Virus record (IMG/VR): IMGVR_UViG_3300045988_148821
Span: 1 to 44,815 of that record
Length of the DNA stretch: 44,815 nt
Reading direction: 5' to 3' (one strand)
From: a virus
Position numbers and translations under genes: made by a program. This document shows, in pieces, positions 1,192-28,481 of this stretch. The stretch's first letter is position 1, and the number at the start of each line of letters is the position of its first letter. Under the pieces are notes generated by a model, which saw nothing but the letters and a program-made list of their open reading frames with translations, had not been told where the DNA came from and did not search any database.

Positions 1192-1204
1192 CACAAAACA
1201 CAAG

Positions 1205-1229
1205 CCCCGGGAAACCGGGGTTTTCGTTT
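1205..1229 (+). terminator. Rho-independent terminator after the tailspike gene
   Basis: CCCCGG-gaaa-CCGGGG stem-loop followed by TTTTCGTTT. Confidence 0.8.
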
Positions 1230-1292
1230 ATGTGCGCGTATCCACAACACTTTGCCCGATCATTCTCGTGTCAGTAATTCCAGGCCTTTCGC

Positions 1293-1336
1293 GGGGGTGC
1301 AGTTGTTGGCTTGCGCGTCTGGTTTACTTGCGGTAG
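1293..1336 (+). promoter_or_regulatory. Late bipartite element copy 1 (box 1 exact, box 2 degenerate), upstream of the holin
   Basis: GGGGGTGCAGTTGTTG, a 19-nt spacer, then TTGCGGTAG. It lies between the terminator at 1205-1229 and the holin ATG at 1357. Confidence 0.6.
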
Positions 1337-1356
1337 TCAACGAGAACGAGATTCCC

Positions 1357-1653
1357 ATGCAGGAACACAGTGAAGCGTATTCCTACCTTTTTTCCATAGG
1401 GGTAGCGGTTATGGCACAGGCAGCGATGGCTTTAAACAGAAAGGCGAAGGGGGAACCCTTCAGCATGCTTGAGTTTGTTTCGTCATTGGTGGCGGCCGGC
1501 GTCATGGGCCTGTGCATCTGTATGGCCTGTCATGCCTGTGGCCTGGGGTACGAATGGGGCGGGGCGCTGGCCGGTCTCGGGGGAATGCTTGGTAAGGACG
1601 CCGTCGTGGAAATTGTCCTGCCGGCGCTTAAGAAATACATGGGGATTCAGTGA
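1357..1653 (+). CDS. Putative holin (about 3 hydrophobic segments)
   Basis: 98-aa protein with hydrophobic stretches (YLFSIGVAVMAQAAMAL, FVSSLVAAGVMGLCICMACHA, GGALAGLGGMLG). It is the first gene of the cassette that contains the endolysin and spanins. ATG 1357 chosen inside ORF 1252..1653. Confidence 0.6.
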   Translation: MQEHSEAYSYLFSIGVAVMAQAAMALNRKAKGEPFSMLEFVSSLVAAGVMGLCICMACHACGLGYEWGGALAGLGGMLGKDAVVEIVLPALKKYMGIQ

Positions 1654-5027: not shown

Positions 5028-6317
5028 ATGGCGGTCAAGATTACCCAGAAGAACGCCTCTGGCTTTCCTGCCGGGGTGTATCAAGATGTATCTCTGCAGT
5101 GCTTCTATCTGATAGTCCAAAAGGGCGAGAAGTATCGGTGGTGGGTTTACCGGCGCACAATCAACCGGAAACGGTACGACACCGGGCTGGGGAGCGTGGC
5201 GAAAGTTCCTTTGGCTAAGGCAAGGGCTGCAGCGCAGAAACTGAGTGCACTCACTGATGACGAGTTCCTGGCGATGCGTGAGCAGAAGAAGGAGAAGCGA
5301 GAAGCCGAGAAGGCCCCGGCGAAAAAAGACATTACGTTCGCCCAGGCGGCCGAACTCTACATTGCCCGTCAGTACGAAGAACGGTATTGGACGCAGGAGA
5401 AGTCAGGTGAGAAGACTTTCCGGAATCATTTGAAAAACCACATACTGCCTTTTATAGGTGAAGTTCCGGTAGACCAACTGACGCCCGAAGATGTGCAGTT
5501 GGTGGCCGAAGATACCAAGGACATACCGGCGACGCAGGAACGCTGCTTGTCGCATATCTCCGTTGTCCACACATGGGCTGGCTCAAGAAAGTATCTTTCT
5601 GATCCAGACAGGCGCAGCCCGGCTAGTAAGCAAGGGCGGCTACGGTTCATGATTCCGGCGACAAAAGTAAAGAGGGGCCATCGTGGCGCTCTGTCTCCGG
5701 AAGATCTACCCAACTTTTTCGCTGCCTGCATGGCGCAACCCCAGATCATCAGCCGACAGTGCTTTGAGCTTTCTATTTTGTGCGCTCTGCGTTCGGAGAC
5801 GGCTCGCAAACTACGGTGGGAACACGTCAGGTGGGACGAGAAGATTATCGTGTGTCCGCCTGAGATCATGAAGGTTCCGGAGAATGGCCCGCTGGTGGTT
5901 CCGATGTGCCCACGTGTTGAGGCGTTTTTAAAAACGGTCAACCCGAATCCGCCGGCGGAGGGCTTGATCTTCTCGAATCATTGGGGCGAATTGCTGACCG
6001 ACTCGATAATTAGCCGATATGTAAAGCTGACTCCGGGCAAATGGATTGATAAGCAGCAGACGTTGTTGCAAGGGAAAGAAGTCCGGGCGACTCAGCACGG
6101 CATAGCCCGGGCCACGTTTATGACATGGAGTCAGGACGACGTGCTGGGGAATGACTTGCGGTTTGACGTGAAGGTGGCGCACCGGGCGCTGCATCATAAG
6201 GTGAAAGATGACGGCGGGGATGGGGCCTACGAGCGGCAGACGTTGTTCCTGCGCCGGCGCGAACTGATGACCGCGTGGGCGGATTACTGTTTCAGTAAGG
6301 TGAAGGAAGCTGTATGA
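5028..6317 (+). CDS. int: Tyrosine recombinase/integrase, P4-like
   Basis: N-terminal arm-binding-like region (FYLIVQKGEKYRWWVYRR). Catalytic signature ALRSETARKL ... HGIARATF (H-x-x-R) ... HRALHH...GAYERQ (Tyr). SD GGAGG sits upstream of ATG 5028. Confidence 0.9.
   Translation: MAVKITQKNASGFPAGVYQDVSLQCFYLIVQKGEKYRWWVYRRTINRKRYDTGLGSVAKVPLAKARAAAQKLSALTDDEFLAMREQKKEKREAEKAPAKKDITFAQAAELYIARQYEERYWTQEKSGEKTFRNHLKNHILPFIGEVPVDQLTPEDVQLVAEDTKDIPATQERCLSHISVVHTWAGSRKYLSDPDRRSPASKQGRLRFMIPATKVKRGHRGALSPEDLPNFFAACMAQPQIISRQCFELSILCALRSETARKLRWEHVRWDEKIIVCPPEIMKVPENGPLVVPMCPRVEAFLKTVNPNPPAEGLIFSNHWGELLTDSIISRYVKLTPGKWIDKQQTLLQGKEVRATQHGIARATFMTWSQDDVLGNDLRFDVKVAHRALHHKVKDDGGDGAYERQTLFLRRRELMTAWADYCFSKVKEAV
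5494..5532 (+). promoter_or_regulatory. Degenerate sixth copy of the late bipartite element, inside the int coding sequence
   Basis: TGCAGTTGGTG (10/11) at 5494-5504, an 18-nt spacer, then ATACCGGCGA (9/10 to copy 2 box 2) at 5523-5532. Confidence 0.45.
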
Positions 6318-6913
6318 GACAGTTGAAAACTTTTACTTTAAAACTAAAAGGTGACACTGATTATCCTGGCCTGATTGAGATTAAAGCTGAAAATCTGATA
6401 GACATTGCAGATTTAGATGTAGATGTAGCAAAGGCCAAACTTGAGGTGCTATGTCGCTCGAAAGGATATAACGGGGTAATTGATGCCGTTTTGTTTTCTC
6501 GGTTTGAGCCTGCAGTAAAACAGGTGATGATCCATATTACCGGTCGGCCGGTTGTTTTCTCTGCCTTAACTGCGAAAGACAGAGTAGTAGCCGGTGGCAA
6601 TGCAACGATTGGGTTCTTGTCGTCACGAGTGTTCCGGCGGGGCTTAGCGCTTGTTTTCTTTTTTACCGTGGTGGTCTTTGGGGGGATATTCGCTGTCCAC
6701 AAATACAATCATATGATTAAGTACGAGGGGAGAAAAATCTATATTTCATGTTTAGCAGAACATAATTTACTAAAAGGTAATGAAAACTATGGGTATATAT
6801 TTGATTTTGAGATAAGGAGAGAGGCGAATTTCGATAAAAACAAACAAAACGTCATCAGATTGTGTGATAAAAAAGAAAGTGACTTTGTTACAAAAAGAAC
6901 GCTTTTTGATTAA
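6314..6913 (+). CDS. Membrane-anchored hypothetical protein, AT-rich moron coupled to int
   Basis: ATG 6314 overlaps the int TGA (ATGA). One TM segment (LALVFFFTVVVFGGIFAV). The 3' third is conspicuously AT-rich compared with the rest of the genome. Confidence 0.65.
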   Translation: MRQLKTFTLKLKGDTDYPGLIEIKAENLIDIADLDVDVAKAKLEVLCRSKGYNGVIDAVLFSRFEPAVKQVMIHITGRPVVFSALTAKDRVVAGGNATIGFLSSRVFRRGLALVFFFTVVVFGGIFAVHKYNHMIKYEGRKIYISCLAEHNLLKGNENYGYIFDFEIRREANFDKNKQNVIRLCDKKESDFVTKRTLFD

Positions 6914-12175: not shown

Positions 12176-12814
12176 TTATGGCGCAAAGAAATGGCCGATA
12201 ATTTTTACTTTGCCAACGACGTTGTACCCCGTTAACGTTGGAACAAGAATCGGCGGATAGCGAACGTTGTCGCTGATGATGTTAAATCCGTCGGGAACCA
12301 TCTGCAGGCGTTTGAACGTGTGGATTCCGCGGGGATTCTTGAGCAGATACAGGTCATCAGCATCGTAGTCTGTGACACTAGTATCTACGACGAGGAGGTC
12401 TCCAGCAGCTGCGGTTGGTGCCATGGAGTCGCCACGCACCAGGTGGAGTCTGAGTTCGTCTAGGGGCGAAGACGGAACAAATGAGCGGAGCCACGCGACA
12501 GAAACTTGCATGACTTCAATGGCCGGACGTAGTTGCTCGTCCGGATCGCGAAGAATCTTCAACATGATACTGTCCTTACTAGATGTCAGATTCCCGGCAC
12601 TGTCCGGTTGGCCGCCAGCACCATATCTCAGGTATGACGGTGTTGTACCGAGTATTTGACACAATCGCTGTAATGTCTCCTCATCTCTTGGCAACGTTCC
12701 ATGTGACCACGTACTGGCCGCTTGACGTGACTTGCCTACTTGTTTTGCAAGTTCTGCTTGGGTTAGGCCGCGTTTCTGCAGCAACTCCCTAAAACGGGCT
12801 TCGTAGTCGTTCAT
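12176..12814 (-). CDS. cI: CI-like repressor (XRE HTH plus S24 LexA-type autopeptidase)
   Basis: LTQAELAKQVGKSRQAASTWSHG helix-turn-helix, an Ala-Gly linker candidate (YGAGG), GDSM Ser and FKRL Lys of the S24 dyad. Divergent from the cro-like gene. Confidence 0.9.
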   Translation of the reverse strand: MNDYEARFRELLQKRGLTQAELAKQVGKSRQAASTWSHGTLPRDEETLQRLCQILGTTPSYLRYGAGGQPDSAGNLTSSKDSIMLKILRDPDEQLRPAIEVMQVSVAWLRSFVPSSPLDELRLHLVRGDSMAPTAAAGDLLVVDTSVTDYDADDLYLLKNPRGIHTFKRLQMVPDGFNIISDNVRYPPILVPTLTGYNVVGKVKIIGHFFAP

Positions 12815-12834: not shown

Positions 12835-12920
12835 GCAGTTGACAGAGTACACCCTAAATGGACTCTGTGTAGGTGCGAGGCTATGGACAAACGCCACTTC
12901 AAATGGATATAATTGTCTCA
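12835..12920 (+). promoter_or_regulatory. OR/PR region: PR-like promoter and operator-like repeats
   Basis: -35 TGGACA (12884-12889), 18-nt spacer, -10 TATAAT (12908-12913). ACAGAGT-N13-ACTCTGT (12842-12868). GACAAACG (12886-12893) and a 12/14 match to the OL 14-mer. Confidence 0.6.
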
Positions 12921-17029: not shown

Positions 17030-17236
17030 ATGGATGACGAGAACTTTCACACCTTGCTGCCCGAGTGGGCGCAACTCCTTCTCCGGAAAGCGGCATCCGT
17101 CCCCAATACTCCGGAAGACCCGCGCAACCGGGACAAGTGTATCGAGACCGTCGACCACGAATTGCGGCTCCGGATACCGGGTGCATTTGTCTCCGACCGA
17201 GACGCCCAAAATGTTGTATGTCGAAAGAAACGATAG
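17030..17236 (+). CDS. Hypothetical protein (68 aa)
   Basis: ATG 2 nt after the rusA stop; coding-like. Confidence 0.45.
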   Translation: MDDENFHTLLPEWAQLLLRKAASVPNTPEDPRNRDKCIETVDHELRLRIPGAFVSDRDAQNVVCRKKR

Positions 17237-17429
17237 AAACCAGCCCGTCGGCCAGTCACATCACTGGGCCCGGTGGACGGACGCCGAAGTCCGGTGGGTA
17301 CTGCAACTGCATGAGGGCGGCATGAGTTACACCCGGATTTCGGAAAAGCTGGACATGCCGCGGTCTACGGTGGCTGCCATCTGCCGCGGCGAAATCCGGC
17401 CAAGGATTAACGAGTTGAGGCGAGCATGA
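17211..17429 (+). CDS. Small HTH protein (72 aa), candidate late regulator or terminase DNA-recognition partner
   Basis: WTDAEVRWVLQLHEGGMSYTRISEKLDMPRSTVAAICRG helix-turn-helix. The stop overlaps the terS ATG (ATGA). Confidence 0.5.
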   Translation: MLYVERNDRNQPVGQSHHWARWTDAEVRWVLQLHEGGMSYTRISEKLDMPRSTVAAICRGEIRPRINELRRA

Positions 17430-17833: not shown

Positions 17834-19406
17834 TGAGTTGAACCAAGAATTAGCGGATTTCATTGGGCAGTTCTACGCCGATCCCTTGGGGTATGTTCTC
17901 GCCGCGTACCCGTGGGACTCGAACCCGTCCATCCAGTTGTGTACCCTTCCGGAACCGTGGCGGGCTCGGTATCCCAACTGCCACTACGGCCCTGATGCTT
18001 GGAGTTGCCGCGTAATGGATGAGATTGGCCGCCAGGTGCGTGAGAACGCCTTTGATGGCCGGCACGCCGTGAAGCCTATTCGGATCGCTGTCAGCAGCGG
18101 CCACGGCATCGGCAAGTCCTGCCTGAGTTCCTGGCTGATTGACTGGATCATGAGCACCCGGCCCTACGCGAAGGGTACGGTGACCGCTACGACAAACGGT
18201 CAGCTGGCGACGCGTACGTGGGCCCAGATCAAGTCTTGGACGACCAAAGCCCTGACTTACGATTGGTTCGACGTGAAGGACGGCCGCGGCTCCATGGAAC
18301 TGCGCAGTCGTGAAGCGCCCTCCGAATGGTTTGTCTCGGCCCAGTCCTGCCGCAAAGAGAACTCCGAAGCCTTTGCCGGTCAGCATGCCGCCAACTCGAC
18401 GTCGTTCTACCTTTTCGACGAGGGTTCCGGTATCGACGACAAAATCTATGAGGTGGCAGAAGGCGGCCTCACGGACGGTGAGCCGATGTTCTTTGTCTTC
18501 GGCAACCCTACCCGAAACTCCGGCGCTTTCTACGACATTTTCCACAAGTACCGAGACCAGTGGACGTGCTTCAAGATCGACAGCCGCGAGGCCCAGATTA
18601 CCAATAAGCCCGCTATCCAGGCCTGGATCGACCTCTATGGCTATGACTCCGACTTTGTCCGCGTCCGTGTCCGGGGCGAGTTCCCGAACGCGTCCGACTG
18701 CCAGTTCATTCCGCAGAACATCGTAGAAGCCGCAATGGCCCGGCCGTCCATGGAATTCCACCCGGGCGAGCATCCGGTGTGCGTGGTTGGGGTGGACTTG
18801 GCCGGCCCCGGTTCCGACGATACGGCAATTGCCACGCGTATCGGCCCTGAAGTTCTCAAGATTGAGGCTTTCCACGAGACGAGCGTCACGGCGATGTGTA
18901 CCCGCATCAAAGAGCACGTCAATTGGCTTTACGACACCTACGGCTTTGAAAAGGTCTACGTCTTCATGGACAGCGGTGGTATCGGCTACCCGTACGTCAC
19001 CCTGCTTAAGGAGTCCAACTTCCCGGTGAACGGGGTGAACTTTGGCCAAGGCGCCGACAAGCCGATGGTGTACCTCAACAAGCGCTCGGAAATGTGGGCC
19101 CGCATGAAGGAATGGTTGCAGGGCCCGATGGCTAAGCTGCCCGACGACGATGACCTCAAGTATGACCTTGTGGCGCCGGAGTACTTCCACCAGATTACCG
19201 ACAACCGCCTGGCGCTCGAGTCCAAGGAGGAGATGAAGAAGCGCGGTCTGCATTCCCCCGACAAGGCCGACGCGCTGGCCCTCACGTTCGCTGAAATTGT
19301 CTACGAGCGTGCCCAGTCTGTGGGCCCGGATCAGGGGCGCGCCAGTTACTTCACCCGCGAGTCCCGTCGCAACTCTCTCTCCAACCGCCGCCGCTTCAAT
19401 CGCTAG
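17826..19406 (+). CDS. terL: Terminase large subunit
   Basis: Walker A VSSGHGIGKS and Walker B FYLFDEGSG, with a C-terminal nuclease-like half. ATG 17826 overlaps the terS end; the ORF-track start 17655 is a spurious extension. Confidence 0.9.
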   Translation: MIDELNQELADFIGQFYADPLGYVLAAYPWDSNPSIQLCTLPEPWRARYPNCHYGPDAWSCRVMDEIGRQVRENAFDGRHAVKPIRIAVSSGHGIGKSCLSSWLIDWIMSTRPYAKGTVTATTNGQLATRTWAQIKSWTTKALTYDWFDVKDGRGSMELRSREAPSEWFVSAQSCRKENSEAFAGQHAANSTSFYLFDEGSGIDDKIYEVAEGGLTDGEPMFFVFGNPTRNSGAFYDIFHKYRDQWTCFKIDSREAQITNKPAIQAWIDLYGYDSDFVRVRVRGEFPNASDCQFIPQNIVEAAMARPSMEFHPGEHPVCVVGVDLAGPGSDDTAIATRIGPEVLKIEAFHETSVTAMCTRIKEHVNWLYDTYGFEKVYVFMDSGGIGYPYVTLLKESNFPVNGVNFGQGADKPMVYLNKRSEMWARMKEWLQGPMAKLPDDDDLKYDLVAPEYFHQITDNRLALESKEEMKKRGLHSPDKADALALTFAEIVYERAQSVGPDQGRASYFTRESRRNSLSNRRRFNR

Positions 19407-19450
19407 GGGGTGCAGTTGTTGCCCTCTTTCTCCGCCGATCATGCCGGCGA
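19404..19450 (+). promoter_or_regulatory. Late bipartite element copy 2
   Basis: TAG(terL stop)-GGGG-TGCAGTTGTTG (19411-19421), 19-nt spacer, ATGCCGGCGA (19441-19450). Confidence 0.6.
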
Positions 19451-19461
19451 AGGAGGAGGGC

Positions 19462-19923
19462 ATGACTATTTCTGTGCGGATGACGCCGGTCAAAGCATTG
19501 GCCGACGACAAATTCAGGTCGTTGTTTGATCTGTATGCCGCAGAGTCCGGCATCGAATCGTTCGGCAATTGGGCCGTGGCGTGGCAGAACTATGAAGCGC
19601 TGGAGAACACCGGCTGCCTGGTGGTGTATGTCGCCTACGACGATGACACGCCTGTGGGCATTGTCGGCTGCCTGATAACGCTTCACCTGCATTACCGCGT
19701 CCCGATGTTGGCAACGGACGGCTTTTTCGTTCTTCCGGAATACCGTGACAAAGGCGTAGGCGGACGCTTGCTGGCGTCAGCCTACCGCCTGGCTAAGGCC
19801 AAACGCATTGAGCACGTTGAGATCAGCTGCCCGCCCGGCGGACACCTCGACCGCAGTCTGTCTGTTAAGCCCTACTTCACCTTGGTTTCCAAAATCTACG
19901 AAAGGAGCTTCAAATGGGGTTAG
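19462..19923 (+). CDS. GNAT-family N-acetyltransferase
   Basis: Motif A RDKGVGGRLL within a GNAT-sized (153 aa) protein. AAGGAGGA upstream of ATG 19462. Confidence 0.75.
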   Translation: MTISVRMTPVKALADDKFRSLFDLYAAESGIESFGNWAVAWQNYEALENTGCLVVYVAYDDDTPVGIVGCLITLHLHYRVPMLATDGFFVLPEYRDKGVGGRLLASAYRLAKAKRIEHVEISCPPGGHLDRSLSVKPYFTLVSKIYERSFKWG

Positions 19924-20230: not shown

Positions 20231-21985
20231 ATGAAGGCTAAAGCATCAGAGCTGCGCCAACGGCTTGCCCAGATGAAGGCGACTCGAACGTCCATAGAGC
20301 CGCTTTATCGCAAGCTGCAGCGCTATATCCTGCCTGAAACGGGGCGGTTCGACGAGGTGCCCGGGGTCGAGTCCGAAGAGACCGGCTACGAGTTTATCAA
20401 CGACGCGACGGCCACGGACGCAATAGACGTTCTCGGTGCCGGCATGTTGGGCGGCATGACGTCGCCGGCGCGCCCGTGGTTCCGGCTTACAACGCGCTCT
20501 CCGGAACTGGACGAGAACACCAACGTCAAGCGCTGGCTCTCTGAGCTGCAGACCGAAATGCAGATGGTGTTCGCCAAGTCCAACGTCTACCAGGCGCTCA
20601 ACAATGCCTACCTGGAACTCGCCTGCTACGGCACGGCCTGCCTGGTGGCGCTGCCGTCCGACCGCAGGGTTATCCATTTGCATGAGATGACCGCCGGCGA
20701 GTACTGGATCGAGGAGGACGCAGAGCAGCGGGTGAACACCGTTTATCGGCAGATCGTCATGACGTCTGCTCAAATGGTGGAAGTCTTCGGAGAGTCCGCC
20801 GTGAGCGATGGTGTACGCGAGGAGGCCAAGAACCCCGCCGCATGCTTCAGGACGCACACGGTCATCCATGCCATTGAACCGCGCCCGGACTACGACCCGA
20901 CGAAGAAGGATAAGTACTCCATGCCTTACCGCGGGGTGTATTTCGAAGAGGCGGCCGGCCAGTACACCTACGAAATCGGATCGGATGAACTTCCGAACGC
21001 ACAGGATCGAGTGCTGCGGGAAGAGGGCTTCAAGACGTTCCCGTGCCTTGTTCCGCGTTGGGCTATCAGCAAGCGGTCTCCCTATGGCCGCAGCCCCGGC
21101 ATGAAGGCCCTGGGCGTCGTTATGGCCCTGCAGGAAGAGACGACCATCAAGGAGCGCGCTACGGACTACACGGTGAACCCGCCGTTGCTCGTTCCGGAAG
21201 AGTACGAAAGCAAGCCGCTCGACTTCGGCCCCGGCGGCGTCAGCTACTGCAACCTCACGCAGGCACAGCAGGTGAAGACCGCTTGGGACGTCAGGTTAGA
21301 TCTCAACGCCGTCAAGGTGGACATTGACGACAAGCGCCAGAGCATCAACAACTACTTCTACAAGGATCTTTTCCTCATGCTGGCCCAGACGGCTCGCTAC
21401 GGTCGCACAGCTTACGAGGTTGAAAAGCTCGACAAGGAAAAGATGCTGATTATGGGCCCGGTGCTCGAGCGCCTTCACCTCGAACTTCTCGACCCGCTGA
21501 TCGCGACGACCCTGCAGTGCATGCAGCGCTTCGACCTGATCCCGCCGATGCCCGACGAGATTAAAAGCCTGGACAGTATTTTCGGGGAACGTGAGTACAC
21601 GCAGAACGCCGAAGAGAAGGGGCCGGGCGACTACATCAACATTGAGTACGTGTCGATCCTGGCGCAGGCCCAGCGTGCCGCTGGCGTGGATGCCATGAGT
21701 ACCTACGTTCAAAGCCTGGCCGGTGCCTCTCAGGTTTGGCCGAACGCTATCGACAATCTCGACGAGGACAAGTGGGCCCGCAAGCTAGCCGACCAGTTGG
21801 GGGTCGATCCGGAAATCATCCCGAGTCAGGAAGAAGTGGATCAGAAGCGCGAACAACGGGCCCGGCAACAGCAACAGGCCCAACAGCTCGAGTCCGCCAA
21901 GCAGCTCTCCGACATTGCCAAAAACATCCCGCAGGCGAGTTCGGCCGACGCCATGAAAGCCATGAGCGGATATGCCGGCATGTAG
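20231..21985 (+). CDS. Portal (head-to-tail connector, T7/BPP-1 type)
   Basis: 584 aa; position after terminase; N-terminal pattern LAQMKATRTSIEPLYRKLQRYILPETGRF typical of podovirus connectors. Confidence 0.8.
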   Translation: MKAKASELRQRLAQMKATRTSIEPLYRKLQRYILPETGRFDEVPGVESEETGYEFINDATATDAIDVLGAGMLGGMTSPARPWFRLTTRSPELDENTNVKRWLSELQTEMQMVFAKSNVYQALNNAYLELACYGTACLVALPSDRRVIHLHEMTAGEYWIEEDAEQRVNTVYRQIVMTSAQMVEVFGESAVSDGVREEAKNPAACFRTHTVIHAIEPRPDYDPTKKDKYSMPYRGVYFEEAAGQYTYEIGSDELPNAQDRVLREEGFKTFPCLVPRWAISKRSPYGRSPGMKALGVVMALQEETTIKERATDYTVNPPLLVPEEYESKPLDFGPGGVSYCNLTQAQQVKTAWDVRLDLNAVKVDIDDKRQSINNYFYKDLFLMLAQTARYGRTAYEVEKLDKEKMLIMGPVLERLHLELLDPLIATTLQCMQRFDLIPPMPDEIKSLDSIFGEREYTQNAEEKGPGDYINIEYVSILAQAQRAAGVDAMSTYVQSLAGASQVWPNAIDNLDEDKWARKLADQLGVDPEIIPSQEEVDQKREQRARQQQQAQQLESAKQLSDIAKNIPQASSADAMKAMSGYAGM

Positions 21986-22029
21986 GGGGGTGCAGTTGTT
22001 GACGAAATCACAGAGGAAGATGCCGGCAT
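21983..22029 (+). promoter_or_regulatory. Late bipartite element copy 3
   Basis: TAG(portal stop)-GGGGG-TGCAGTTGTTG (21991-22001), 18-nt spacer, ATGCCGGCAT (22020-22029) overlapping ATG 22028. A second ATGCCGGCAT lies at 21972-21981. Confidence 0.6.
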
Positions 22030-22318
22030 GACAGCGAATGACAAACGCGCAGAGGCCAAGAAGAAGCAGGAGCAGGCCGCCCAGCAGGAGAAAAACGACT
22101 GGGAATGGTTCACTTCTGACGAACGCGGACTGCGCATTCTTCACCGGGCTATTGGCTTTTGCGGCGTGTTCCGCAACGGCTTTAACCCTAATGCGTTGAC
22201 GATGTCCTTCGGTGAAGGGCAACGCAACGTCGGTTTGTATCTGTGGGATCGGCTCGCGCGGTTCACGCCCGAGAAAGTCCCGCATTTTTTAGAGATGAGA
22301 GACAGCGATGGCTATTGA
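22028..22318 (+). CDS. Bbp19-like small head-module protein
   Basis: WEWFTSDERGLRILHRAIGFCGVFRNGF...FGEGQRNVGLYLWDRL resembles the Bordetella phage BPP-1 Bbp19 family pattern. Confidence 0.6.
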   Translation: MTANDKRAEAKKKQEQAAQQEKNDWEWFTSDERGLRILHRAIGFCGVFRNGFNPNALTMSFGEGQRNVGLYLWDRLARFTPEKVPHFLEMRDSDGY

Positions 22319-24464: not shown

Positions 24465-24488
24465 TAGACCGCTCGTCATGAGCAACCG

Positions 24489-24514
24489 CAGGGGCCTCGT
24501 GCCCCTGTTTTCGT
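24489..24514 (+). terminator. Rho-independent terminator after the capsid/decoration genes
   Basis: CAGGGGC-ctcgt-GCCCCTG followed by TTTTCGT. Confidence 0.8.
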
Positions 24515-24526
24515 ATGGAGATTTAA

Positions 24527-25147
24527 ATGGCGACTGAAGTAGATATTTGCAACACCGCCTTGTCGCTCCTGGGGTGCCGTGCGGACATAGCCAGTATCTC
24601 ACCGGTGGAGGGCGGCCGCTTTGCGGAGGTGTGCGCCCGAGAGTATCCGATTGCCCGGAACTTGGTGCTTGAGGCTCACGACTGGAGCTTTGCGTGCCGG
24701 CGGGCCAACTTAGCCGTTTTGCGCACCGACCTCTTCGGGTGGCAGTTCGGGTATGTTCGGCCGGCGGATGCCGTGAGCATTGTGGCCGTCGTTCCGGAAG
24801 ATGACAGATACTTTGAACACCCGCACGAATTCATTGTGGAGGCCGACCAGGAATCCGGGGTGAGCCTCATCCTCACAGATCTTCCGGGGGCCGTCTGTCG
24901 CTATCTGGCCCGCGTCACAAACACGTCACTCTTTCCGGAACAGTTCTGCCAGGCCGTGGCGTTCAAACTCGCGATGCGCCTTTCCGGAAACATCATCAAG
25001 GGGACGCCGGGGCAGCAGGTGGCGGTGAACCTTGAGAAGCAGTATCAGACGATTTTGGCGTCAGCCATTCATTTCGACATGAAGCAGCGCCGCAAAGATT
25101 TAGATCTCCGCGCGACGTGGTCTAAGAAGCGGGGGTTAAGAGTATGA
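24527..25147 (+). CDS. Head-tail adaptor / tail tubular protein A-like
   Basis: N-terminus EVDICNTALSLLGCRADIASISPVEGGRFAEVCAREYPIARNLVLEAHDWSFA matches the gp11-like adaptor pattern. Confidence 0.7.
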   Translation: MATEVDICNTALSLLGCRADIASISPVEGGRFAEVCAREYPIARNLVLEAHDWSFACRRANLAVLRTDLFGWQFGYVRPADAVSIVAVVPEDDRYFEHPHEFIVEADQESGVSLILTDLPGAVCRYLARVTNTSLFPEQFCQAVAFKLAMRLSGNIIKGTPGQQVAVNLEKQYQTILASAIHFDMKQRRKDLDLRATWSKKRGLRV

Positions 25148-27825
25148 CCGTAGTTACCCAAAAGAGTTTCGCCGGCGGCATCATGGGCCCGATGATGTTG
25201 GGCCGCAGCGATGACCCCAAGTATCAGGCCGGCCTGAAGGTGTGCCGGAACTTTATCTGCCTGCCCCAGGGGGCCGTCCAGAACCGCCCGGGGTTTGCGT
25301 ATGTGGCTGAGGCCAAGTATCCGGACAAGCGGGTGCGGCTGATTCCGTTCACGTTCTCCCGAGACCAGACGATGATCCTGGAGTTCGGCCACAAGTATGT
25401 CCGGTTCCACACCAACGGGAAGACGCTGCAGAACGATGACGGCACGCCCTATGAGATTGCGTCCCCGTACGACGCAGACGACGTCATGAAGCTGCATTAC
25501 ATCCAGTCGGCCGATATTCTGACGTTGGTGCACCACAGCTACCCACCAGCAGAGCTGAAGCGCTATAGCGTCCAGGATTGGCGATTCGAGACGATCAGTT
25601 TTAACCCGACGTTGGCGGCCCCGAAGAACGTGAAGGCGGTGAAGGCCACAACAGCCGAGAATGAAATCAACGCCGACAAGTACACCTTCAAGTACTGCGT
25701 GACGTCCCTCAACGCCGACCGCACGATTCAGTCAGAACGCAGCGCTATCGCCTGGTGCACGGCCAACATATACAACACCGGAACGACGATCAAGATTTCG
25801 TGGGATAAGGTGGACGGGGCGCAGTTCTACCGGGTATACCGCAACGAAGGCGGCGTCTACTCCTACATCGGCGAGACTGAAGAACTGGAAATCATTGATG
25901 ACAACATCGCTCCGGACAGCGAGTACACGCCGCCACGTATTGATGATCTTTTCCACGCGGCCAACGGTATTTCAGCGGTGACGGTGACCAACAGTGGTAG
26001 CGGGTATTCGGATGTTGTGAACGGAGTGAAATCATTAACGAGCGTTGATAAATCTTTTCTTGGCAACATTGGCAGCGGGATAGAGCCGACGTTTACGGTA
26101 AAAGTGCAAATAGTTGATGACGGAAATTCTGGATCTGGAGCCAAAGCGACCGCGGAATTCACGTCAGATGTAGGCCCAGACAGATGGTCTGAGGATGGCT
26201 ACAGACCAACGCGGTACGGCTACACGGTGACGGTTACGTCTATCAAGGTGACCAATCCCGGAAAGAATTACCTGAAACCGAGAGCTAAATTGACGCTTTA
26301 TGCCCACCACACGACCACTGGGCAAGGATTGGCCAGCGGTCGAGAAGTGGACTCAAAATTAAGCACCAAGACGGTCACCATGCCCCGTCAGAACTTGGCA
26401 GCCACGGCCTACGTTACCGATAAGACGGGGCGTGGGGCAGAGCTGCAGCCCGTGATTGTCGGTGGCAAGATTACCGAAATTAAGGTGGTGAAGAGCGGGG
26501 AGAACTATACGGAGCCCAAAGTGGTGATTAAGGCCTCTATCGGTTCTGGGGCGACTGCCACAGCAACGGTGGCAAAGGCGGCCGACTATCCCCAGTGCGT
26601 GACGTACTTTGAACAGCGTCGGGTATTCGCCGCTACGCCGACGCAGCCGCAGGGTATTTGGATGACGCGCACGGGCACGGGGAATGACTTCACGTATTCC
26701 ATTCCCGTGCGTCCGGATGATCGAGTGTCCTTCAAGATTGCCAGTCGTGAACGCCACGAGATTTTCCATTTGGTGCCGCTCAATCGTCTGATAGTCCTTA
26801 CGGAGGCGGGCGAATGGGTGGTGACGTCCGTCAATTCTGACGCCATCACGCCCGAGTCGGTGCAACTCAAAAGCCAGTCTTTTGTCGGCGCCAACATGGT
26901 TCAGCCGTTGATTGTGAACAATACTGTGCTCTATGCGTCCGCGCGTGGTGGGCATATCCGGGAACTGGGCTACAACTACAACGCCGGCGGCTATGTGACG
27001 GGCGACGTGAGTATCCGGGCTGCGCACCTTTTCGACAGCTATGAGGTGCTGGACGGGGCATTCGCTAAGGCACCGTACCCGATTGGGTGGTTCGTTAGCT
27101 CTTCCGGAAAGTTGCTGGGGTTCACATACGTCCCGGATCAGCAGATCGGGGCTTGGCACGAACACACGACGGACGGGATTTTTGAGTCCGTTGCAGCCGT
27201 GGCCGAAAACAAGATTGACGCCATTTATTGTGTGGTGCAGCGTGAGGTCAAAGGCGAGGTGCGCCGTTTTATCGAACGCATGGGCGAACGGGAACACGAC
27301 GATGATGCGGACGCCTTCTTTGTGGACTGCGGCGGAACGTATTCCGGAGAGCCGACGGACACGGTGACGGGACTCACGTGGCTCGAAGGAAAGACCGTCA
27401 ACATCTTGGCCGACGGGGCCGAGATGCCGCAGCAAGTGGTGAAGGACGGGACGATTAAGCTCGACGTTGAGGCGCGAACGATTCACGTCGGCCTGCCGAT
27501 TGATGCCGAGATTTGCACGTTGCCGGTGACAATTCCCATGAAGGACGGCTCCGACGGCGGTTCGGTCACCAAGAATGTCAACTCAGTGTTCATGCGCGTG
27601 TACCGGTCGAGCGGCATCTTTATTGGCCCGGAAGATGGTGAAGACGTTGAGTTCCGGCAGCGCACCACGGAAGACCCCGGCAGTCCTCCGGATCCGGTGA
27701 CGGGCGGCGTGGACATTGACCTGCAGCCCGAATGGAGTGATTCCGGAGCGGTGTCCGTCAAGCAGAAGTCGCCGCTGCCCCTGACCATTCTCAGCATCGC
27801 CGCCAATATGCAGCTCGGCGGGTAG
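25144..27825 (+). CDS. Tail nozzle / tail tubular protein B-like (893 aa) with a three-repeat insertion
   Basis: N-terminus QKSFAGGIMGPMMLGRSDDPKYQAGLKVCRNFICLPQGAVQNRPGF is typical of podovirus nozzle proteins. ATGA-coupled to the adaptor gene. Confidence 0.7.
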   Translation: MTVVTQKSFAGGIMGPMMLGRSDDPKYQAGLKVCRNFICLPQGAVQNRPGFAYVAEAKYPDKRVRLIPFTFSRDQTMILEFGHKYVRFHTNGKTLQNDDGTPYEIASPYDADDVMKLHYIQSADILTLVHHSYPPAELKRYSVQDWRFETISFNPTLAAPKNVKAVKATTAENEINADKYTFKYCVTSLNADRTIQSERSAIAWCTANIYNTGTTIKISWDKVDGAQFYRVYRNEGGVYSYIGETEELEIIDDNIAPDSEYTPPRIDDLFHAANGISAVTVTNSGSGYSDVVNGVKSLTSVDKSFLGNIGSGIEPTFTVKVQIVDDGNSGSGAKATAEFTSDVGPDRWSEDGYRPTRYGYTVTVTSIKVTNPGKNYLKPRAKLTLYAHHTTTGQGLASGREVDSKLSTKTVTMPRQNLAATAYVTDKTGRGAELQPVIVGGKITEIKVVKSGENYTEPKVVIKASIGSGATATATVAKAADYPQCVTYFEQRRVFAATPTQPQGIWMTRTGTGNDFTYSIPVRPDDRVSFKIASRERHEIFHLVPLNRLIVLTEAGEWVVTSVNSDAITPESVQLKSQSFVGANMVQPLIVNNTVLYASARGGHIRELGYNYNAGGYVTGDVSIRAAHLFDSYEVLDGAFAKAPYPIGWFVSSSGKLLGFTYVPDQQIGAWHEHTTDGIFESVAAVAENKIDAIYCVVQREVKGEVRRFIERMGEREHDDDADAFFVDCGGTYSGEPTDTVTGLTWLEGKTVNILADGAEMPQQVVKDGTIKLDVEARTIHVGLPIDAEICTLPVTIPMKDGSDGGSVTKNVNSVFMRVYRSSGIFIGPEDGEDVEFRQRTTEDPGSPPDPVTGGVDIDLQPEWSDSGAVSVKQKSPLPLTILSIAANMQLGG

Positions 27826-27865
27826 TGCAGTTGTTGGCCCCTGTGGCGTTGTGAAATGCCGGCAT
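27823..27865 (+). promoter_or_regulatory. Late bipartite element copy 4
   Basis: TAG(nozzle stop)-TGCAGTTGTTG (27826-27836), 19-nt spacer, ATGCCGGCAT (27856-27865). Confidence 0.6.
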
Positions 27866-27881
27866 TACCACGGGGGCAACA

Positions 27882-28481
27882 ATGGCCGGAGAATCCACAG
27901 GCTTGACGACCGTCCAGACCGCGGGGCTTTGGGGCACCGCGATTCAGGCCGTCGGCAGCATTTTTACCAGTTATCAGGCGTCACGCTCAGCGACGGAACT
28001 GTCGCGGATCCAGCAGCGTATCGCCGAGATCAATCAGCAGCGGGCGACGATTCAGGCGCAGGCAGCGCTTGCCGCCTCGAACCGCAACATCGCCAACATC
28101 ACGGGCCAGTACGGGCGCTTAAAGAGTAAGCAGCGCGTCGCCATGGCCGCCAACGGTATCGCCATAGGTTACGGATCCAGCAAGGAGATTTTGGCGACGA
28201 CCGACCTCTATAAGCAGCAGGACGCCAACACGGCCTATGCCAACGGACTCAATGCGGCTATGGGCTACATGAGCAAGGCGACGGCCCAGTATCAGGCGAG
28301 TATCGCTGCAGGCGGCAACAAGTCCAATTCCGGCCTGGTGGCGGCCGACAGTCTGCTTACCGGCATCACGAAGGTGGCCGGCTACTACGTGGATCAGGCG
28401 TCCCGCAACGCGCCGGCAGAGAACGCCGGCGGATCCACGAAGGATGCAGCGACCAACGAATATCCCCCGACCTGGGTTTAG
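27882..28481 (+). CDS. Internal virion protein (199 aa)
   Basis: Hydrophobic N-terminus (GLWGTAIQAVGSIFTS), Gln/Ala-rich helical body, located between the nozzle and large ejection proteins. Confidence 0.55.
   Translation: MAGESTGLTTVQTAGLWGTAIQAVGSIFTSYQASRSATELSRIQQRIAEINQQRATIQAQAALAASNRNIANITGQYGRLKSKQRVAMAANGIAIGYGSSKEILATTDLYKQQDANTAYANGLNAAMGYMSKATAQYQASIAAGGNKSNSGLVAADSLLTGITKVAGYYVDQASRNAPAENAGGSTKDAATNEYPPTWV

Follow-up and report, generated by a model that had tools for sequence, protein, structure and literature searches.

The late region of an uncultivated temperate podophage of the BPP-1/epsilon15 type raises the question of how a gene can be translated when its ribosome-binding site (RBS) is folded into the stem of a hairpin. 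The window examined here is the whole 44,815-nucleotide (nt) stretch of IMG/VR virus record IMGVR_UViG_3300045988_148821, and it carries five copies of a repeated element at late-region gene junctions, named J1 to J5 after copies 1 to 5. The element consists of box 1 (GTGCAGTTGTTG), followed in copies 2 to 5 by box 2 (ATGCCGGCAT or a near match). At J4, between the genes for a tail protein and an internal virion protein, the element leads into a hairpin (27826–27884) that contains the Shine-Dalgarno (SD) sequence and the first base of the start codon of the downstream gene, and that is a conserved, strand-specific RNA structure of the plus strand. We hold, with a little better than even confidence, that such hairpins enclose an internal late promoter and that the RBS would be hidden or exposed depending on the transcript isoform, as a variant of the design of phage T4 gene e.

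Hairpins over the ribosome-binding sites of late genes

The minimum free energy (MFE) structure of each junction was computed with RNAfold and given a z-score against 200 shuffles. At J4 the original prediction had paired part of box 1 and the following spacer with the region before the internal virion protein start codon, and this is also the RNAfold MFE structure, with 15 pairs (14 Watson-Crick and U27842-G27872), G27837 bulged and the helix ending at A27882 of the ATG (−30.5 kcal/mol, z = −2.23, 3 of 200 shuffles equally good). The pairing claimed for J2 is present as well, in a structure stronger than had been described that covers both the SD sequence and the ATG of the GNAT protein gene (−33.2 kcal/mol, z = −4.06, 0 of 200 shuffles). 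At J3 the two copies of ATGCCGGCAT pair with each other in the MFE structure (z = −2.96, 0 of 200 shuffles), and at J5 the MFE helix ends one base before ATG 41834 as claimed (z = −2.44, 3 of 200 shuffles). Stability beyond shuffled controls is thus found at copies 2 to 5 (z = −2.2 to −4.1) but not at copy 1, where the hairpin uses box 1 and is no stabler than its shuffles (z = 0.02). No T-run follows the J2 to J5 stems in the window and the terminator scans do not list them, so they lack the combination of a GC-rich stem and a direct U-tract that characterizes an intrinsic terminator. A search of Rfam 15 gave no match at the gathering threshold anywhere in the window.

Box 1 had been described as the 5' arm of these hairpins. 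It takes part in the pairing at copies 4, 2 and 1, contributing 6 base pairs (bp) to each of the J4 and J2 stems, but at J5 it forms a small hairpin of its own (41781–41790 with 41794–41803) and not the arm that hides the SD sequence, and the role is not a general one in relatives. Across the family box 1 shows no significant complementarity to the sequence preceding the AUG (mean z = −0.46), and p of about 0.01 is reached only in the relatives L278 and L281. What is conserved as the 5' arm is not box 1 itself but the promoter spacer immediately after it.

The cost of exposing each RBS was expressed as an opening energy, the ensemble free energy needed to make positions −14 to +3 single-stranded. 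This energy is 27.8 kcal/mol at J2, 14.4 at J3, 14.1 at J4 and 14.7 at J5, compared with a mean of 6.9 ± 3.5 kcal/mol for 26 other plus-strand genes. Junctions J2 to J5 are therefore outliers among 30 genes of the window, with RBSs two to four times costlier to open than the controls. The proposed burial of the downstream RBS accordingly stands for these four junctions (14–28 kcal/mol) but not for copy 1, whose RBS is not occluded (8.2 kcal/mol). When the upstream context was varied from 50 to 150 nt, the values remained stable at J2 (23–28 kcal/mol) and J5 (15–18 kcal/mol), and the value at J3 was fragile (4–15 kcal/mol).

The opening energy depends strongly on where the modelled RNA begins. 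In a scan of 5' ends it dropped to 2–6 kcal/mol once the RNA began past the 5' arm, with thresholds at +4 from the end of box 1 for J4 and at +16 to +25 for J5 and J2. Omitting the spacer part of the 5' arm at J4 lowered the energy from about 15 to about 2.5 kcal/mol. In all orthologues, RNA begun at +38, the predicted transcription start (+1), had an opening energy of 1.5–8 kcal/mol, compared with typically 15–27 kcal/mol before truncation. The further claim that an RNA beginning at box 2 would be open agrees with computed opening energies of 3–5 kcal/mol.

Conservation of the hairpins in relatives

Two sets of relatives were compared. The close relatives are five IMG/VR contigs from one sample that are 88–92% identical to the window, and 14 further lineages with 49–78% protein identity were obtained from a portal-based metagenome scan and from look-ups of internal virion protein homologues. 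The J4 hairpin is kept in relatives at 57–97% protein identity with different stem sequences. The stems read GCCCCUGUGG/CCACGGGGGC in the window and CCUCGCUGUGGUG/CAUCACAGCGAGG, GCCCCCG/CGGGGGC, GCCCUCG/CGAGGGC, CCGCCUCCGUG/CACGGAGGCGG or GUCCCCUGA/UCAGGGGAC elsewhere. Distant relatives have box 1-like elements right after the stop codon at the same junctions, followed by hairpins with quite different stems. An alignment of 15 distinct J4 orthologues made with MAFFT gave an RNAalifold helix of 11 pairs, 8 of which have changes on both sides. The alignment cells in this helix are paired in 91.3% of cases, as opposed to 73.1% in shuffled alignments (0 of 500 reaching the observed value) and 39–56% with the partner slid, and the covariation score is 0.49 against 0.20 for the shuffles (0 of 500).

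All 16 J4 sequences that were folded, including that of the most distant relative (L283, 49% identity), are stabler than their shuffles, with z between −2.4 and −6.7. In 14 of the 16 the plus strand is 3–13 kcal/mol stabler than the minus strand owing to G-U pairs, an asymmetry that indicates an RNA structure and not a DNA palindrome. A DNA palindrome or an operator for a dimeric protein was ruled out on this asymmetry and on the compensated changes in the J4 arms. The block at 27796–27949 is the second-longest run of 100% identity among the close relatives in about 28 kb that average 89% identity.

A side observation at J4 concerns L267 (9934–10001), L270, L271 and L279, in which a GC-rich basal stem is followed by a run of five to six U residues (CUUUCUU to CUUUUUU) before the AUG, resembling an intrinsic terminator. 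This terminator-like hairpin would be escaped by transcripts from the embedded promoter.

At the remaining junctions the comparison is more varied. Junctions J3, J4 and J5 are unchanged in the close relatives. J5 was compared between the window and L273, a relative at 64% identity, in which the SD sequence and the AUG are buried by unrelated sequence. The suggestion that selection acts on the structure is upheld by this repeated outcome and by the covariation at J4. At J2 a pyrimidine-rich anti-SD stretch pairs with the SD sequence in the window, L188, L273/L184, L275 and L185, and in L273, L275, L185 and L188 both the SD sequence and the AUG are hidden by differing sequences. RNAalifold gave a weak J2 consensus of −0.48 kcal/mol, in which the SD stem changes on one side only. 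In two close relatives, L187 (9174–9239) and L053 (4384–4450), the J2 5' arm has changed from CCCUCUUUCUCC to ACCUAUUCCCCC with an unaltered 3' arm, and the MFE structure is an alternative fold in which a G-run upstream of box 1 pairs with the new C-run, leaving the SD sequence partly free. J1 shows one compensatory pair, C1316-G1330 replaced by U-A, in the relative L128. The palindrome pairing claimed for J3 is confined to the window's own clade and depends on context. Overall, the computed hairpins exist, are unusually stable and junction-specific, are kept by compensatory change and are strand-specific.

The repeated element as a predicted internal promoter

Five exact copies of box 1 start at positions 1297, 19410, 21990, 27825 and 41779, all on the plus strand and all in intergenic gaps of the late region. 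The consensus over 28 copies from 12 genomes is GTGCRGTWGTYG, i.e. GTGC(A/G)GT(T/A)GT(C/T)(G/A). When these copies are aligned on box 1, a second conserved signal, AT, appears at +30/+31. This signal is the end of a hexamer (TGAAAT, GAGAAT, TTCAAT, TGTAAT, GATCAT and others) that lies 14–15 nt after box 1 in 24 of the 28 junction copies; in the window, GCCGGC and then an A come next. Box 2, which begins 18–19 nt after box 1, thereby comprises the final two bases of this weak −10-like hexamer, a 6-nt GC-rich discriminator and, at its ninth base, the predicted +1.

The 3' half of box 1 differs between genomes (TTGTTG in the window, TAGTYG in L267, TTGTCR in L273/L275/L185 and TAGTTG in L278/L281) and is identical across the junctions of any one genome, which implies a co-evolving trans-acting reader, either phage-encoded or host-specific. 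At almost all junctions the upstream stop codon is adjacent to box 1 or overlaps with it. Where the two abut, the stop is always TAG, since its final base doubles as the first G of box 1. In L283 a terminator hairpin precedes a box 1-like element whose spacing to TTAAAT is also 14 nt, and an A lies seven bases further on. Since terminators precede both this element and copy 1, and given the fixed 14–15 nt spacing, the uniformity of box 1 within genomes and the position of the J3 start codon, each late element is most likely an internal promoter, made up of box 1 (read by a factor or sigma), the spacer, the weak −10-like hexamer, the discriminator and the +1. The geometry places the predicted +1 at 19449, 22028, 27864 and 41817, and a further transcript 5' end is predicted at about 1335.

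At J3 every lineage has the start codon of the Bbp19-like gene at +38/+39 counted from box 1, 7–8 nt past the hexamer (window 21990–22030, L267 4173–4214, L273 4143–4184, L275 4076–4117 and L278 4078–4119). The five other lineages examined have no SD sequence here, and the window keeps an SD-like GAGG 11 nt upstream of the ATG. Coincidence of the ATG with the predicted +1 in all lineages makes a leaderless mRNA beginning with the A of the AUG the more likely template, and the arrangement suggests that the Bbp19-like gene is read from such a transcript. The upstream in-frame ATGs chosen by gene callers for this gene in L273, L275 and L278 are probably wrong.

In the proposed mechanism the DNA from box 1 through the spacer would also encode the 5' strand of the hairpin, and the 3' strand would carry the SD sequence and start codon of the next gene. 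Polymerase arriving from upstream would produce a long RNA with both strands, in which the ribosome site is sequestered. With a +1 at about 19449, 27864 and 41817 the promoter would sit between the hairpin arms, and its RNA, beginning in the loop or the 3' strand, would lack the 5' strand and be open for translation. If read-through RNA is closed and RNA from the junction's own promoter is open, the first gene after the junction would be expressed mainly when that promoter fires. Silence on read-through RNA may add Rho-dependent polarity and so insulate the late modules. We infer the identity of the promoter, the position of its +1 and the consequence for translation.

Several observations weigh against this mechanism. 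The opening energy of J4 in the window depends on context, ranging over 8–15 kcal/mol for 50–150 nt of upstream sequence, although it is mostly high. In L278 and L281 the conserved core of the J4 helix excludes the SD sequence, and truncation scarcely alters the opening energy (10.1 vs 8.2 and 7.7 vs 7.6 kcal/mol), so burial of the SD sequence may not be the only role of the hairpin. The SD sequence at J2 is free in L267 and L278, and the close relatives have uncompensated changes in the J2 5' arm, one variant weakening the fold from −33 to −21 kcal/mol. About half of the −10-like hexamers lack the canonical A at position 2. The genes upstream of J3 to J5 are also late, and the benefit of silencing read-through is not obvious; it probably lies in shielding the late modules against read-through of the early-right operon, perhaps with Rho polarity. 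In some lineages the hairpin may serve further or other purposes, for example in termination, pausing or RNA stability. A more elaborate scheme, which we consider fairly unlikely, makes the cassettes translation-gated insulators in which a closed RBS on read-through RNA leads to Rho termination, so that modules are expressed only from their own box 1 promoters; the L267-clade hairpin with its U-tract would then be a terminator escaped by the module's own transcripts, and a single factor evolving along with box 1 could recognize the element in two forms, as a promoter in the DNA and as a hairpin to be opened in the RNA.

The position of box 1 against the upstream stop codon also fits translational coupling, in which the RBS stays closed until the ribosome finishing the upstream gene melts a 5' arm that starts a few bases past the stop. 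At J3 of the window the 5' arm lies inside the portal gene and would be opened by translating ribosomes, and at J4 the opening energy falls from about 15 to 6.5 kcal/mol with a ribosome placed on the stop. We nevertheless consider coupling unlikely, because the SD-hiding arm generally lies beyond box 1 and past the reach of a terminating ribosome, and only at J3 and partly at J4 of the window does the 5' arm lie in the upstream open reading frame (ORF) or within about 12 nt of its stop. Removing the 12 nt after the stop to mimic a terminating ribosome leaves the RBS closed at J2 (25.6 kcal/mol), J5 (17.9 kcal/mol) and 9 of 14 J4 orthologues (16–21 kcal/mol), and coupling does not account for a conserved box 1, a hexamer at fixed distance or a copy 1 located behind a terminator. 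Nor is that placement of copy 1, or of the L283 element, expected if box 1 were an RNA operator, instead of or besides a promoter element, to which a phage protein binds and pries open the adjacent hairpin in the manner of Mu Com. Box 1 does lie immediately 5' of the 5' arm or overlaps it, always on the coding strand, and its variation between genomes with uniformity within them points to a trans-acting partner. An RNA operator would require neither the 14–15 nt spacing nor the J3 AUG at +38/+39, both of which are geometric constraints on DNA, and no Com-like protein was found among the selected ORFs scanned, which do not include all small ORFs of the window; we regard the operator as very unlikely.

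In T7-like phages, RNA is commonly processed at intercistronic hairpins of this size, and the stems could be RNA processing or stability elements (RNase III sites or protective 3'-end stem-loops) or, in some lineages, terminators acting on upstream transcripts only, with burial of the SD sequence a by-product of short intergenic spacers. The core stems of L278/L281 that exclude the SD sequence and the U-rich run after the J4 stem in the L267/L270/L271/L279 clade would suit such a role. It is made improbable by SD sequences within the 3' arm in most lineages, by the pyrimidine anti-SD character of the J2 5' arm, by the missing T-runs and terminator calls at J2 to J5 and by the length of the window stems (11–16 bp), short for RNase III. 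A last possibility is that GC-rich intergenic DNA folds readily and that a purine-rich SD sequence pairs with a pyrimidine-rich spacer by chance, with no selected function. The modest z-scores of J4 and J5 (−2.2 and −2.4), the failure of J1 to exceed its shuffles, the one-sided changes in the J2 SD stem and the uncompensated drift of J2 in close relatives would be expected of it. The J4 covariation, with 0 of 500 shuffles reaching the observed pairing and slid controls at 39–56%, already disfavours chance folding, and orthologue z-scores down to −6.7, the strand-asymmetric fold and four junctions that are outliers among 30 genes make it a highly improbable explanation.

Readings of box 1 and box 2 as sigma-54, sigma-32, sigma-28, extracytoplasmic function or plain sigma-70 promoters were rejected by inspection, as the spacing or key bases are unfit, and a sigma-70 scan gave no match at the junctions. 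A leader peptide starting from TTG inside box 1 was rejected because the copies disagree in reading frame and length. Only unrelated primer sequences were matched when the literature was searched for the motif. A sixth near-copy of the element occurs at 5493–5532 inside the integrase gene, with GTGCAGTTGGTG (one mismatch), 14 nt, GGACAT, ACCGGC and G in the geometry of the late junctions; it could be due to chance or be an internal promoter directed at 6314–6913. The ORF at 17034–17429, between RusA and the small terminase, encodes 131 amino acids (aa) with a C-terminal helix-turn-helix (HTH) and sub-threshold Pfam matches that include sigma-70 region 4. Its first 59 residues look non-protein-like and the true start may be M60. 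Searches of PDB, NCBIfam and Pfam gave this protein no identity, and its position makes it only a candidate for the late regulator that reads box 1.

Genome context and comparison with known systems

The positions of the junction features are collected in Table 1.

Table 1. Features of the five late-element junctions and two further genes of the window
Feature	Position	Strand	Details
J4 box 1 (GTGCAGTTGTTG)	27825–27836	+	First G is last base of tail gene TAG stop; predicted promoter recognition element, about −39 to −28
J4 hairpin 5' arm	27831–27846	+	Six box 1 bases and spacer GCCCCUGUGG
J4 weak −10-like hexamer TGAAAT	27852–27857	+	
J4 box 2 (ATGCCGGCAT)	27856–27865	+	Last two bases of hexamer, discriminator GCCGGC, predicted +1 A27864, a T
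J4 hairpin 3' arm	27868–27882 (element 27868–27884)	+	SD GGGGG (27872–27876); A of ATG 27882–27884, internal virion protein gene
J2 (terminase large subunit / GNAT)	19410–19467	+	Box 1 19410–19421; 5' arm 19414–19437, paired with 3' arm 19445–19467; hexamer GATCAT 19437–19442; discriminator; predicted +1 G19449; SD 19451–19459; ATG 19462
J3 (portal / Bbp19-like)	21972–22030	+	First palindrome copy 21972–21981, inside portal gene; box 1 21990–22001; hexamer GAAGAT 22016–22021; box 2 22020–22029; ATG 22028 at predicted +1
J5 (giant 3709-aa protein / 751-aa protein)	41779–41836	+	Box 1 41779–41790; SD-hiding arm 41804–41814, overlapping hexamer GAGAAT (41805–41810) and discriminator, paired with 3' arm 41821–41833; predicted +1 A41817; ATG 41834
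J1 (tailspike / holin)	1202–1359	+	Terminator 1202–1223; box 1 1297–1308; hairpin 1303–1311 with 1335–1343; inner stem 1314–1317 with 1329–1332; holin ATG 1357
J1 intrinsic terminator	1202–1223	+	Strong, bidirectional; after tailspike gene, before copy 1 and holin gene
Integrase gene	5028–6317		
CI-like S24 repressor gene	12176–12814	−	

A long co-directional block of plus-strand genes begins at about 13.1 kb. Its first part contains replication genes, RusA, the small HTH protein, a DUF5681 small terminase, the large terminase (ending at 19406) and the GNAT protein (19462). The portal (20231–21985), Bbp19-like (22028), scaffold/protease, GP7-type capsid and Bbp16-like genes follow, and the last part encodes an 893-aa tail protein (25144–27825), the internal virion protein (27882), a 3709-aa polyvalent protein (30647–41776), a 751-aa protein (41834), the tailspike (7–1191) and a LydA-type holin (1357). 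The gene for the 3709-aa polyvalent virion protein, which has DUF7178, LPD23 and a weak ART-PolyVal match, occupies a quarter of the genome, and the versions in relatives are 2400–3710 aa long. Between the Bbp16-like cement gene and the gene at 24527 lies a convincing intrinsic terminator (24488–24508). Immediately to the right of the repressor gene is the best sigma-70-like promoter of the window (12884–12913; TGGACA, 18 nt, TATAAT; 11 of 12 matches), directed into the plus-strand block. It probably serves as the early-right promoter, and its read-through transcripts would reach the J2 hairpin first.

Megablast of 9.5 kb of the window gave no match among GenBank phages, and the nearest cultured relatives are BPP-1-like phages with 42% portal identity. 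Box 1 is absent from 80 portal relatives at about 40% identity, which restricts the element to the window's lineage. A scan of IMG/VR with the box 1 14-mer gave matches that were mostly chance, and 48 single matches to the combined box 1 and box 2 pattern in genome contigs were rejected as chance, since none resembles the window in nucleotide or protein sequence. Searching for related loci by way of the capsid failed to recover even the close relatives.

The closest parallel is found in phage T4, where the late promoters of gene e and I-TevI lie in the DNA for the 5' strand of the inhibitory structure, giving translatable transcripts, and read-through transcripts are silent (PMC3014915). As in T4 gene e (lysozyme), I-TevI, soc and gene 49, a hairpin here buries the SD sequence and AUG on read-in transcripts, and the predicted +1 sites of J2, J4 and J5 fall between the arms. 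The sequences are unrelated, the T4 promoter being TATAAATA with gp55 and the one proposed here box 1 with a weak −10. The present virus is a temperate BPP-1/epsilon15-like podophage with the design at three to four junctions of one co-directional late region, and the start site and translation effect mapped in T4 are only inferred in this case. Unlike in T4, the upstream genes are themselves late, so the hairpins may serve to insulate modules or to control dosage instead of gating early against late expression.

Other systems share single parts of the arrangement. The Mu Com-mom system also has a stem-loop that sequesters the SD sequence and start codon, with a specific sequence just 5' of the stem as a possible factor site, but the fixed spacing between box 1 and hexamer and the position of the J3 AUG indicate a promoter role at the DNA level here. 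The T4 middle (MotA box), Mu C-dependent and P2 Ogr-dependent late promoters replace the −35, as the predicted promoter here would, with a conserved non-sigma-70 box at a fixed distance from a weak −10, in several copies per genome, each before a late gene block. The box sequence here is unrelated to theirs, no homologue of MotA, AsiA, C or Ogr was detected, and the small HTH protein is the only candidate. None of these promoter systems is known to pair each promoter with an RBS-hiding hairpin. In the MS2 coat-replicase and infC-rpmI-rplT systems a downstream RBS is also closed by an upstream segment, whereas the closing segment here lies past the stop codon and mostly outside the reach of the terminating ribosome.

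The late elements would represent a previously undescribed late-promoter architecture, combining box 1 (GTGCRGTWGTYG), a weak −10-like hexamer, a GC-rich discriminator and, at one junction, a leaderless gene. For genome annotation, an intergenic hairpin beside a phage promoter may be a translational gate and not a terminator. If the promoter-in-hairpin interpretation is true, the T4 arrangement would be a recurrent and independently evolved device, applied systematically at the internal promoters of uncultivated temperate BPP-1-like podophages.

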